32,000 nucleotides of DNA. It comes from Candidatus Saccharimonadota bacterium. GTDB lineage: Bacteria > Bacteroidota > Bacteroidia > Cytophagales > Amoebophilaceae. Shown here in pieces: positions 1 to 30,782 of the stretch (positions are counted from its first letter, which is position 1; every line of letters begins with the position of its first letter). The notes beneath the pieces are model-generated. The model was not told where the DNA came from. It was given only the letters and a program-made list of their open reading frames with translations, and searched no databases. The translations under genes were made by a program, and so were the position numbers. The DNA lies in the NCBI RefSeq assembly GCF_936981045.1, contig NZ_OW441264.1, positions 600,001 through 632,000 on the forward strand, written 5' to 3'.

Positions 1-70
1 GGTGTAAATATTAACTAAATAATTGATATTAAATTGTTGTAAATCAGTCAAATAAATCCCGAACTGACGT
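1..70 (+). mobile_element. MITE-1 copy 1 (right-hand 70 bp; the rest lies left of the window)
   Basis: Positions 1-70 are nearly identical to the last 70 bp of the full copies (e.g. 702-771). They end in the terminal repeat AATCCCGAACTGACGT. Confidence 0.8.
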
Positions 71-358: not shown

Positions 359-1827
359 ATGAAAAGAAAAGAGACAGTTAAAGATGGGATAAGCAAGGCC
401 ATAGATGTACTGATAGAATCAGGTGTAGACCTTTCCAGACTTTTTGATCAAGACGGCTTACTCAAACAATTAAGTAAGCGTCTTGTAGAAAAAGCATTAC
501 AGTCAGAAATGGATGACCATTTAGGTTATAACGTGAGTTCGGGATTAGATTATTTTTTCATTTGATAATCAATATCAATGAAAATTTATAAAATTTGTTT
601 TATTAGACAATTAAATAGGTAGTTGAATAACAAATAATTCTGGTAATCAGTTTATTATGTATGTTATATTTATAAAATTAGATATAAAAACTTGTTAAAT
701 AAGTGCAAATATTAACTAAATAATTGATATTAAATTGTTGTAAATCAGTCAAATAAATCCCGAACTCACGTTTATAATAAGTATGCACGTAGTGATTCAG
801 AGAATGTACGTAATGGATTATTCAGTAAGCACGTTATTACTGATAATGGCGTTATATCGGTTGAAGTACCCAGAGATAGAGCATCGACTTTTGAACCTAT
901 TTTATTGCCTAATCGTCAAACAAGAATTCCTAGTTTGGATGATAAGATCTTATCTTTATATGCTAAAGGTATGAGTCTGTCAGATATTCAGATTCAAATA
1001 CAGGAATTATATGGCGCAGAAGTAAGTGAAAGCCTGATAAGTAACATCACAGACTCTGTTATTAAAGATGTTAAGATATGGAAAAATCGTCCCTTAGAAT
1101 CAGTCTATCCTATTGTTTTTTTTGATTGCTTTGTAGTTAAAGTTAGACAAGATAAGCGCATCATCAACAAGGCAGTCTATGTCGCTTTAGGTATAGATAG
1201 ATCTGGCATAAAGGATGTTTTAGGGCTTTGGATGAGTGAAAATGAAGGGGCTAAATTTTGGTTAGGCAATTTAACAGAACTCAAAAATCGGGGTATGAAC
1301 GATATGCTCATTGCATGTACAGATAATTTGTCAGACATGTCTGAGGCCATTGCTGCTGTATACCCAAAAACGGAACATCAGCTCTGTATTGTTCATGCAA
1401 TTAGGGGTAGTTTGCAGTATGTTTCTTATAAACATAGAAAGGTATTAGTTGCTAATTTAAAACCAATTTATACAACAGTTACCGAGCAAGAAGCATTGAT
1501 GGCCTTAGAAGCTTTTGCTACTAAGTGGAATCAACAATACCCACAAATAGCCCAATCTTGGTATGCTAACTGGGATAATCTGATGGTATTTTTACAGTAC
1601 CCTAATGCCATACGTAAGGTCATTTACACAACAAATGTTTGGAATCTGTAAATAGCCAATTTCGTAGAGTTATCAAAAATAAAAGAGTGTTCCCTAACGA
1701 TCTAGCTGTTTTTAAAACATTATATCTAATTATTAACTACATGACTAGAAAATGGACCACCTCTATTCATAACTGGAGCGAGGCTATGGCACATTTTTTA
1801 ATTAAATTTGAAAACAGAATTGAATAA
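359..1827 (+). pseudogene. IS256-family transposase, split by MITE-1 (531-771) and frameshifted near 1630
   Basis: The N-terminus ...LQSEMDDHLGY(N) stops in the MITE. The frame resumes at 772 as YNKYARSDSENVRNG...VPRDRASTFEPILLP, joining the ORF at 905-1651. The C-terminus (ESVNSQFRRV...) is in another frame at 1639-1827. Confidence 0.85.
531..771 (+). mobile_element. MITE-1 copy 2 (241 bp, non-coding, inside the IS256 transposase gene)
   Basis: 16-bp perfect terminal inverted repeats ACGTGAGTTCGGGATT / AATCCCGAACTCACGT. It is flanked by the direct repeat TTATA. The interior is AT-rich with no ORF. Confidence 0.9.
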
Positions 1828-1866
1828 AACCAAAAAAATAATTTACACACTTAAGTGGACAGAGCC

Positions 1867-1955
1867 CATCTGATCAATTTATTGTATGACTTTAAAACTA
1901 AACGATACGGAAAATAAATTAAAAGATTTTTGTCCGAATTTTTCAGTCCATTATA
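1867..1955 (-). mobile_element. IS3-family 5'-terminal fragment (left inverted repeat plus leader up to the start codon)
   Basis: Nearly identical to 24654-24741, the 5' end of the inverted IS3 copy. It ends in TGTCCGAATTTTTCAGTCCATTATA, which is the complement of the IRL at 13291-13315. Confidence 0.7.
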
Positions 1956-7956: not shown

Positions 7957-8343
7957 ATGTCTATATTCAATCTGCTTACTATATTTATCATTATAGTAGC
8001 CATTCTATTGCTTGGTGCTATTTTACTGCAAGAGCCTAAGGAACGGATCACCCCTTCAGGTGGAGGCTCAGCTTCCGTGCAACGCATTGGCATTAATCAA
8101 AAGGCAGACTTTTTAGAAAAAGCTACTTGGGTATTGATAGGATTATTGCTCTTTTTAACCCTCTTGTCTTCTATTTTTCTTAAAGATGCACTAGAGTCAA
8201 ATAGGAGTCCCAATTTGGTTAAAGCTCAGAAGGACCAAGCATCAAACACCACAGCCGTTCCAAGCACTACGGATGATGCAGCTATTACCCAAGAGGATCA
8301 GAAACCTGCATCTAATGCAACAAACGCTGCTTCTAAAAACTAA
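7957..8343 (+). CDS. secG: Preprotein translocase subunit SecG
   Basis: Small two-TM protein with LLQEPK...GGG after TM1, and a low-complexity C-terminal tail. Confidence 0.65.
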   Translation: MSIFNLLTIFIIIVAILLLGAILLQEPKERITPSGGGSASVQRIGINQKADFLEKATWVLIGLLLFLTLLSSIFLKDALESNRSPNLVKAQKDQASNTTAVPSTTDDAAITQEDQKPASNATNAASKN

Positions 8344-8395
8344 CTTTCAAGATAAAAGAGCGTATCAATGTTTGTTAATACAAATGGTTATGTAT

Positions 8396-9007
8396 ATGAA
8401 AGTAATCAACATAAGGAAGTCTATCCCAGTTTTTTTTGCCTATTTTCTTGTAGCACATCCATCACGCGCTGTTGGATTGACTACGGGGCCATCTTTAGGT
8501 ATAGCTGGGTTTCATACTAGTTTTGACTTAAAACTGCAACGCCAAAAAATCTCTACGGATAATATGGCATTACAGGTGGGGTGCTTTGCAAAGTTAGATG
8601 TTTGGCTTTTATATGCTAGGTTAGATGCCTTGTTTGTATTAGATTGGCGTAAATTACCCAATAAATCGAAGCGACACCATTTTAAATCTATTACCCTACC
8701 CTTGACGATTGGTCTACCTCTTTTTGATCTCTTTCGGCCTCATATTGGTCTTGTGTTTCGGCTACCTATTGGTGTAGATGATGCGAGGTTTAAAGGCAAC
8801 TGCCTTATAAAAAGCTATAAAGAAAAAATCAATGGCTATATATTAGGTTTGGGTATAGATCTAGGCAATATTTTAATGGATGTCTATTGGGAATTTGCGC
8901 GATCACCAGTAGCTAGAAAATCTATAAGCGATGCCCTGATAGATGGTCATAAACAGTATAGACCTGGGCAACTTACCTTAAGGGTCGGTTACAACTTACT
9001 GGGCTGA
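8396..9007 (+). CDS. Hypothetical exported protein, possibly an outer-membrane beta-barrel
   Basis: The in-frame ATG at 8396 gives a signal peptide (MKVINIRKSIPVFFAYFLVAHPSRA). The body has alternating hydrophobic beta-strand-like periodicity. The upstream part of the track ORF overlaps secG and is unlikely to be coding. Confidence 0.4.
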   Translation: MKVINIRKSIPVFFAYFLVAHPSRAVGLTTGPSLGIAGFHTSFDLKLQRQKISTDNMALQVGCFAKLDVWLLYARLDALFVLDWRKLPNKSKRHHFKSITLPLTIGLPLFDLFRPHIGLVFRLPIGVDDARFKGNCLIKSYKEKINGYILGLGIDLGNILMDVYWEFARSPVARKSISDALIDGHKQYRPGQLTLRVGYNLLG

Positions 9008-9136: not shown

Positions 9137-9302
9137 ACCCGTCCTTTATAAAAAGTTGCGATGAGAAAGCACACCTTGCAGCTGATCAGAAAAACAGCAT
9201 GTTTGCAGCCCGCATAGCGGGCAAATTCTATTTTTCCAGCTGCAAGGTGTAGTTTTAAGAACTTTTTGCAGAGGGCTTTATTTTTTGCACACTTTTTTAT
9301 CA
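9137..9302. repeat. Structured intergenic repeat, copy a (continues at 9543-9573 after the MITE)
   Basis: Homologous to 15481-15599 (right part) and 28837-28910 (left part). It contains 14-bp inverted arms ACACCTTGCAGCTG (9171-9184) / CAGCTGCAAGGTGT (9237-9250), an inner GCCCGC-ATA-GCGGGC hairpin and an 11-bp terminal stem (9288-9298 / 9550-9560). Confidence 0.6.
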
Positions 9303-28836: not shown

Positions 28837-28910
28837 TTGTCCTTTTTGAATCATACGATCAGAAAGAACACCTTGCAGCTGATCAAAAAAATAGTTTAAT
28901 GGAGGCCACA
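28837..28910. repeat. Structured intergenic repeat, copy c (left part only, truncated by the IS256 type C fragment)
   Basis: TTTGTCCTTTTTGAATCATACGATCAGAAAGAACACCTTGCAGCTGATCAAAAAAA is homologous to 9137-9195. Confidence 0.5.
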
Positions 28911-29088
28911 GGAAGTGTTCAATGAACTGTGTCACAGTACCGCTCTATCTCAACTCGAACTTTAACCTACCGAGAAAAAAGATGTCGAGCTGAGATATCG
29001 TTTTTATACAAGGTTTATACTGGTAAATGCTCCCTTTGTCTTAGTAAATTGTCTAATCTGCCTGTGCAAGCTTTCTATGGGATGGTTC
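28911..29088 (-). mobile_element. Inverted partial copy of the IS256 type C right end (~178 bp)
   Basis: It is the near-perfect reverse complement of ~30192-30371, including the terminal repeat GGAAGTGTTCAATGAACTGTGTCA and the last transposase codons (TNPTESLHRQIRQFTKTKGAF). Confidence 0.85.
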
Positions 29089-30371
29089 GGAAGTGTTCAC
29101 TAAACTGTGTCAAATCTTTAAAAAGTTATAATTTGCATACTTAACAGATAAAGGTTTTAGACATAGAAGAAACAATGCATAATGACTACGTTGGCTTAGT
29201 AGATTAACAAATCTCTAGAGGCAAATATTTTATCCTCTATCCGTTTAGGTAAGCCTTTAACAGGCAAAGGTGGTGCTTTAACGCCTCTGATAAAAAAGCT
29301 TTTAGAGGCAAGTCTAGAAGGTGAAATGGCACACCATTTATCTAGTGATTCACGAGAAAATAATAGAAGAAATGGCAAAAGCTCTAAAACTTTTCGTACA
29401 AGCTCTGGTTCATTTGATTTAGTAACCCCTAGGGATAGGACAGGTAGTTTCGATCTGCAAATAGTTAAAAAGCGTCAAACAAGTTTACATCCTGAGCTGG
29501 AAACCAAGATCTTAAGCATGTTTTCTAGTGGTATGAGGTATAATTCTATAGCGTCTCATGTTGAAGAAATTTATGATCATAAAGTGCCAGCTGCTGAAAT
29601 ATCGGCTATTACAGATAGCTTGTTACCGGTAATAAATGAATGGCGTAACCGTCCTCTTCAATCAGTTTATCCAATAGTTTTTATGGATGGCATGTTTTTT
29701 AAGGTGAAAGAAGATGGAAAATGTGTAAGTAAATGCATATATACCTTATTAGGCATAGATCAGGAGAGGAAAAAAGAAATATTAGGCTTCTATTTGTCTG
29801 AAAGTGAAGGTGCTAACTTCTGGCTAGGTGTACTTAACGAACTTAAGGAAAGGGGTGTAGAAGATATCCTTATTGCCTGCGTTGATGGCCTAAAAAGCTT
29901 CCCTTCATCCATAAATACCGTTTTTCCTAATACACAAGTTCAGGTCTGTATAGTACATCAGATACGCAACACACTCAAATATGTAGCTAGCAAAGATGTA
30001 AAACGTTTTTTAACTGATTTAAAGCAAATATATCAAGCCTCAAGTAAGGAAGTTGCTGAACATTATCTATTGGAACTGGAAGAAAAATAGGAAAAAAAGT
30101 ATCAGATGGTTACCAAATCTTGGCAAAATAATTGGGACCATTTATCTGCTTATTTTAGGTATTCAGGTTCTGTCAGAAGGCTAATTTATACAACCAATCC
30201 CACAGAAAGCTTGCACAGGCAGATTAGACAATTTACTAAGACAAAGGGGGCATTTACCAGTATAAATTCCTTGTATAAAAACGATATCTCAGCTCGACAT
30301 CTTTTTTCCCGGTAGGTTAAAGTTCGAGTTGAGATAGAGCGGTACTGTGACACAGTTCATTGAACACTTCC
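29089..30371 (+). mobile_element. IS256-family insertion sequence, type C (degraded)
   Basis: The IRL GGAAGTGTTCACTAAACTGTGTCA (29089-) resembles the reverse complement of the right end GGAAGTGTTCAATGAACTGTGTCA (-30371). The transposase is related to type A but clearly distinct from it. Confidence 0.8.
29175..30315 (+). pseudogene. IS256-family transposase (N-terminal frameshift, in-frame TAG at 30088, truncated C-terminus)
   Basis: MHNDYVGLVD* is followed by a shifted frame ...LTGKGGALTPLIKKLLEASLEGEMAHHL.... A TAG replaces the Trp expected in LELEEK*EKKYQ, and the frame also shifts by 1 nt between that stop (30088-30090) and the ORF at 30106-30315 (...YTTNPTESLHRQIR...), which carries the end and runs into the terminal repeat. 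Confidence 0.8.
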
Positions 30372-30542
30372 TACAAATAGCAAAATTACACTATCGACCT
30401 ATCACAACGGTCTCAACTCTTTTTAAACTCGTTAACTGAAGTAGAGCTCCTTTCCTCTTGAATGGTTTCCCAATCAATACTAACGGTAGTATGAGCCCCG
30501 CAGACTTCTGATATCACCTCTATTGACTTCGCTTTACTTATA

Positions 30543-30782
30543 ACGTAAGTTCGGGATTTATTTTACTGATTTACAACAATTTAATATCAATTATTTAGTT
30601 AATATTTGCACCTATTTAACAAGTTTTTATATCTAATTTTATAAATATAATATATATAATAAACTGATTATCAGAATTATTTTTTATTAAACTACCTATT
30701 TAACTGTCTATAAAACAAATTTTATAAATTTTTATTAATATTGATTATCAAATGAAAAAATAATCTAATCCCGAACTCACGT
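30543..30782 (-). mobile_element. MITE-1 copy 6 (inverted orientation)
   Basis: 240 bp, the reverse complement of the other copies. Termini are ACGTAAGTTCGGGATT and AATCCCGAACTCACGT. The flanking repeat is imperfect (TTATA / TATTA). Confidence 0.85.

Follow-up and report, generated by a model that had tools for sequence, protein, structure and literature searches.

The window analysed here, a 32-kb stretch of a Cardinium chromosome, contains repeated copies of a short AT-rich element, identified below as MITECca01. Repeat search and multiple alignment revealed five full copies and a sixth that is cut by the window edge. The cut copy (1-70, plus strand) is a right end whose terminus reads ACGTCAGTTCGGGATT as reverse complement. 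Four full copies lie on the plus strand. One of 241 bp (531-771) is found in an IS256-family transposase gene, a second (9303-9542) in the loop of an intergenic hairpin, 47 bp from a tRNA-Ser(cga) gene, a third (18327-18566) in an OppB-like ABC permease gene that had already decayed, and a fourth (24360-24599) in orfA of the IS3-family element IS3b, which is on the minus strand. The fifth full copy (30543-30782) is inverted and lies on the minus strand.

At four of the five full copies, the AT-rich target is perfectly duplicated; the duplications are 5, 5, 8 and 5 bp long, and all begin with T and end with A. They read TTATA (526-530 and 772-776), TATCA (9298-9302 and 9543-9547), TAAACATA (18319-18326 and 18567-18574) and TAATA (24355-24359 and 24600-24604), respectively. 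The inverted copy has no matching duplication, since its flanks read TTATA and TATTA; recombination between MITE copies is a possible cause.

With 240-241 bp, the full copies are below the limit of about 300 bp that is used to define MITEs. Pairwise identity between copies is 94.6-96.3%, and their GC content is 18-21%, compared to 36% for the window. The copies do not have an open reading frame in common; the longest stop-free stretch is 30-33 amino acids in four copies and 64 in one. Both ends of the element are formed by the 16-bp inverted repeat ACGTGAGTTCGGGATT, which is perfect at 7 of the 11 ends and carries one substitution at the other 4. In the multiple alignment of the five full copies, similarity stopped directly outside the ACGT...ACGT termini, and the flanks were unrelated. 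The repeat core GAGTTCGGGATT, with at most one mismatch allowed, had 15 matches in the window, against 0.07 expected by chance, and all 15 were ends of MITE or IS982-like copies. Among the variable columns of the alignment, 20 were private to one copy and 4 were shared. Each copy carried 3-5 private substitutions, equivalent to 1.3-2% divergence from the consensus. This star-like variation fits a burst from one master sequence.

An earlier reading of the window from the sequence alone had placed six copies at these positions, including the partial copy at 1-70 and the inverted one, and had named the four duplications correctly. It had missed a seventh, degenerate copy, and the statement that every copy ends in the 16-bp repeat has to be qualified for the four substituted termini, as does the account of the duplications for the inverted copy, which lacks a clean one.

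The second set of elements with these ends consists of two copies of ISCca4, a member of the IS982 family. Copy 1 (14202-15204, plus strand) is inserted in the IS3-family element IS3a, and its transposase gene is a pseudogene with three frameshifts. Copy 2 (21435-22436, plus strand) abuts an IS256 fragment, and its otherwise colinear frame contains two in-frame TAG stops. The copies are 1002-1003 bp long, 97.5% identical, and each has one frame of about 293 codons. IS982-family elements, as described in ISfinder, are about 1 kb long and have a single ORF and ends beginning with AC; target duplications in the family are 3-9 bp. The two 1-kb elements have the size, the ORF and the ends of this family, and the MITE duplications of 5-8 bp lie inside the family range. 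With its stops repaired, copy 2 scored 260 bits against the NCBIfam IS982 model (NF033520, cut-off 130). The ends of the window copies are ACCTGAGTTCGGGATTAG and ACCTCAGTTCGGGATTAG, beginning with ACCTGAG and ACCTCAG. The sequence-only reading had recognised the family, these ends and the death of both transposase genes; only the spans of the two copies needed correction. A clean target duplication was found at neither copy: copy 2 abuts the truncated IS256 element, and for copy 1 no alignable paralogue was found, as the IS3 paralogue is truncated at this point. The IS256 fragment is present at the right side of copy 2 only, again without a target duplication, which suggests IS-mediated deletion or recombination rather than a simple insertion.

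The window copies match the published ISCca4 over its first 150 nt at the 5' end; the published consensus end reads ACCTAAG (Halter, Hendrickx, Horn and Manzano-Marin, 2022, Microbiol Spectr, PMC9769881). In the genome as a whole, 7 of 68 ISCca4 copies are intact (Halter et al., 2022). The intact IS982-family transposase that the earlier reading had proposed to look for was found in the Cardinium strain cOegib as a 293-aa protein (P0121), 97% identical to the repaired copy 2 protein. A second IS982 transposase cluster of the same strain, P0122, showed 89% identity.

The MITE ends closely resemble those of ISCca4. The left repeat agrees with the left end of ISCca4 at 15 of 16 positions (17 of 18 when extended), and the right repeat with the right end at 14 of 16. 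Common to both are ACxTxAGTTCGGGATT and, next to the left repeat on its inner side, about 6 of 8 bases (AGATTATT versus AGCTTGTT). The targets of both elements include AT-rich DNA and other IS copies. They differ at position 3 of the repeats, which is G in MITECca01 (ACGTGAG, at both ends) and C in ISCca4, and in content, as ISCca4 is 1 kb long and encodes a 293-aa DDE transposase, whereas MITECca01 is non-coding. As the earlier reading had stated, there is no common internal sequence: local alignment of the MITE interior with ISCca4 gave a score of 27, compared to a mean of 26 for shuffled sequences. An origin of the MITE by internal deletion of ISCca4 can thus be argued only from the ends and the few similar bases next to the left repeat.

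Comparison of empty and filled sites, another check that had been proposed, was possible for the copy at 24360-24599. The site is empty, TATTA occurring only once, both in the window paralogue (around 13430) and in the Cardinium of Sogatella furcifera (cSfur, L001:8846-8850). For two further copies, the disrupted frames could be restored. Removal of the copy at 531-771 together with one TTATA restored the frame of the IS256-family transposase (...EMDDHLGYNKYARSDSE...), and the restored protein scored 350 bits against the NCBIfam IS256 model (cut-off 150). Removal of 248 bp at 18327-18566, i.e. the copy and one TAAACATA, restored the frame of the OppB-like permease (...AKGLQEEIVLFKHNFKNVMVPIITTFL... 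/ ...VLFKHNFKNVMVPIITT...), and the restored protein had OppB/NikB-type matches. At 9303-9542, the reconstructed empty site forms a hairpin with a perfect 11-bp stem, CACACUUUUUU/AAAAAAGUGUG (z = -3.2), beside the tRNA-Ser gene (9590-9679, minus strand). In cSfur and in the Cardinium of Nabis limbatus, synteny stops about 25 bp from this insertion. Duplications, restored frames and empty sites together identify the MITE copies as genuine transposon insertions, with one insertion proven by empty sites and two more by frame restoration. The four targets named by the earlier reading, IS256 transposase, IS3 orfA, permease gene and hairpin loop, were all borne out, as was its description of the element as a non-autonomous MITE with IS982-type ends.

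Several other features of the window were recorded alongside. Synteny with the two other Cardinium genomes, which covers a block of hydrolase, dnaN and DHFR genes, ends at window position 9543-9570 (L001:12324 and L002:12309 in the relatives). In the relatives, the next gene is an epimerase gene; in the window, a convergent ORF (8273-9007) is in its place. The opp-type ABC transporter operon (17569-19784) is heavily decayed. Its OppB-like gene is frameshifted and also interrupted by the MITE; near 18640, a deletion has fused the OppB tail to the middle of an OppD-like ATPase, and OppC is missing. The OppD/F-like genes are in fragments, whereas the OppA-like gene (15773-17515) seems to be intact. 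Three sites in the window (1865-1955, 13291-13573 and 24214-24742) carry the 5' end of the IS3-family element with the beginning of orfA. An isolated IS3 remnant of 284 bp is present in the Cardinium of Sogatella furcifera (L001:8708-8991), with 86-89% identity to the IS3b copy and the 1865-1955 fragment and 74% to the IS3a copy, so that this IS3 lineage is older than the divergence of the two strains. A truncated IS256-family transposase ORF (29326-30090) lies between two inverted repeats of about 174 bp (28910-29083 and 30197-30372) that are 97-99% identical. These repeats are far longer than normal IS256 ends and lie 170 bp from the inverted MITE copy; the arrangement points either to a local inversion-duplication or to an element bounded by two left ends in inverted orientation.

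The element is already known. MITECca01 was described in Cardinium cOegibbosus-W744x776 (genome OW441264) as a sequence of about 240 bp with inverted repeats very similar to those of ISCca4, present in 169 copies that make up 3.5% of the chromosome, mostly located in intergenic DNA or disrupting other mobile elements, and not found in other Cardinium genomes (Halter et al., 2022). The authors argue that the family is actively maintained. The sequence published in their Fig. S1 is 92-93% identical to the window copies; the machine-read PDF kept 234 of 240 letters, and most differences are letters lost in this process. Four window proteins are identical to cOegib proteins (CAH2559936, CAH2559942, CAH2559943 and CAH2559946), and the window DnaN is 92% identical to a protein-cluster representative from the Cardinium of Sogatella furcifera. 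As sequence, genome and parent element all match the published MITECca01, the finding is a rediscovery: the MITE reading was right, but the element has been re-found.

Published and window elements agree in the 240 bp length, the 16-bp repeat starting with ACGTGA, the interior, the parent ISCca4 and the habit of disrupting mobile elements. The window adds the duplications of 5, 5, 8 and 5 bp, the copy without duplication and a degenerate relative with 69% identity; neither the main text nor Fig. S1 of the published description contains a table of target duplications. Two further non-autonomous elements related to ISCca4, MITECca02 and a 250-bp "ISCca4 MITE-like" remnant, have the same repeat core (Halter et al., 2022). 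Unlike MITECca01, both retain 93-105 bp from the left end of ISCca4, MITECca02 being a chimera in which an ISCca4 left end is combined with an end of MITECca01 (Halter et al., 2022). Neither is present in the window, because all 15 core matches belong to MITECca01 and ISCca4.

Short, non-coding elements with IS-borrowed inverted repeats, target duplications and many copies are classical MITEs, exemplified by the Correia elements of Neisseria and the RUP elements of Streptococcus pneumoniae. Their architecture is like that of MITECca01, but they belong to other IS families and differ in ends and target sites.

The degenerate relative lies on the minus strand at about 23428-23662. It is 69% identical to MITECca01 and colinear over the whole element, and came to light in a blastn comparison with the MITE interior (E = 1e-17). 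Both of its inverted repeats are decayed; the better-preserved terminus reads ACCTGAG, as in ISCca4, and a 5-bp duplication (TATTA/TACTA) is possible. This copy suggests an older layer of the MITE lineage. It is contained in a separate 412-bp insertion in IS3b (23269-23680), which is missing from the paralogue IS3a. The perfect inverted repeats of this insertion, GTCGACCCTGAAGTATTATT, are 20 bp long, and it is flanked by TACTTA, a duplication of 6 bp. In the window, GTCGACCCTGAAGTATTATT occurs only at the two ends of this insertion, and there is no other copy. The insertion looks like a second, different non-autonomous element; it was not found in the main text or Fig. S1 of the published description.

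We also searched other genomes. A 26-mer shared without change by the six window copies had no match in the GTDB species representatives, a collection that evidently lacks cOegib, and none in JGI metagenomes. No trace of MITECca01 could thus be detected beyond this genome, which agrees with Halter et al. (2022). A structural scan of the GTDB species representatives, for two repeat cores separated by a gap of 193-223 nt, did not identify MITECca01 either. It did identify a family of elements about 250 bp long, spread over eight contigs of Saprospiraceae MAG-38 (JAHDGD01; among them L004, L006, L007, L015, L016, L018 and L019), and one such element in a MAG of Ca. Jidaibacter (CAYWJW01, L011:7199-7436). 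Like MITECca01, these elements have the IS982-type terminus ACCTGAGTTCGGGATTA and a similar length. Their target duplications are also 5 bp, TACTA, TATTA and TAATA in Saprospiraceae, of the T...A type, and CTACA in Jidaibacter. Their interiors, in contrast, are more GC-rich, unrelated and without blastn match to MITECca01, and their hosts belong to different phyla or orders. No IS982 transposase was found in the fetched flanks of the Saprospiraceae and Jidaibacter elements. They are independent IS982-derived MITE families.

Taken together, we consider it very probable that the element is MITECca01, a non-coding MITE with ISCca4-like ends that would be moved in trans by the ISCca4 transposase. 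The termini, the duplications, the sharp boundaries, the absence of coding capacity, the ISCca4-like ends, a transposase source in the same genome and the identity of that genome are all directly observed. In the proposed mechanism, the element contributes only its two 16-bp repeats, which are one or two bases off those of ISCca4. The DDE transposase expressed from intact ISCca4 copies elsewhere in the chromosome would most likely recognise these repeats and would move the MITE in trans into short, AT-rich targets of the T...A type, usually of 5 and sometimes of 8 bp, which would be duplicated on insertion. The rise to 169 copies may have followed a replicative or replication-coupled route. 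Against the proposal stand the difference at position 3 of both ends, the lack of interior similarity, the inverted copy without duplication, and the fact that both ISCca4 copies in the window are dead.

It is possible, though in our view rather unlikely, that MITECca01 is a true MITE but a fossil family, the product of a single past burst of which nothing moves today, whether ISCca4 is intact or not. The private substitutions in every copy and the mutation of 4 of the 11 termini are consistent with such a history. So is the absence of the element from all other genomes scanned, which means that no recent transfer is visible. However, most copies have kept perfect inverted repeats and duplications, the genome contains intact ISCca4 transposase genes, and the authors of the published description argue for active maintenance. 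The sequence-only reading had called present-day mobility doubtful because both local transposase genes are dead. This conclusion did not hold: with intact ISCca4 copies elsewhere in the genome, mobility is not doubtful for want of a transposase.

The identity of the mobilising enzyme leaves some room for a different IS982-family transposase, either from an extinct or unsampled relative with ACGTGAG ends or from a variant within the ISCca4 population. In its favour are the G instead of C at position 3 of both ends, the second cluster P0122 in the same strain, and the missing internal homology between MITE and ISCca4. We nevertheless regard this as improbable. The terminus of the old degenerate copy has the ISCca4 form, ACCTGAG, which points to an origin of the G in the MITE lineage itself; MITE and ISCca4 are also similar in the bases that adjoin the left repeat on its inner side; and MITECca02 joins an ISCca4 left end to a MITECca01 end.

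That the element is not a transposon at all, but a dispersed structured repeat (REP-like, or a small-RNA gene) or a fragment of a longer unit spread by recombination, can be dismissed: its single strand does fold better than shuffled sequences (z = -3.2, mainly due to terminal pairing), but the flanks are unrelated between copies, and the empty sites and the restoration of frames upon removal of copies with exact boundaries and duplications inside coding sequences refute this explanation. An Rfam search of the window returned only two tRNAs and no family in the MITE, and promoter-like sites in the MITE were no commoner than chance, so that there is no support for an RNA or promoter function.

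The sequence-only reading had placed the MITE burst after the IS expansion. This stands for the individual nested insertions, as MITE copies do interrupt IS elements, but not as a general sequence of events: divergence among MITE copies, at about 4-5%, is no smaller than the 2.5% that separates the ISCca4 pair. Histories of MITE and IS elements instead overlap, as ISCca4 copy 1 itself interrupts an IS3 element and the window also has an old, degenerate copy resembling the MITE.

For the window as a whole, reading the sequence alone led correctly to an already published mobile element, to the IS family of its parent and to the way it inserts, and the outcome is little beyond confirmation. The additions are the range of duplication lengths, the old degenerate copy, the second inverted-repeat element and the IS982-type MITEs in other phyla. 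The last of these suggest, from the terminal sequences and lengths, that IS982 elements may give rise to MITEs of about 250 bp repeatedly. Tentatively, and with somewhat more doubt than conviction, we propose that the MITECca01 lineage may go back further, and in more layers, than one recent burst would imply, and that IS982 elements may repeatedly yield MITEs of this size. If the degenerate relative and the 412-bp element are both real families, cOegib would have at least one further undescribed MITE type, as well as an ancestral intermediate between ISCca4 and MITECca01.
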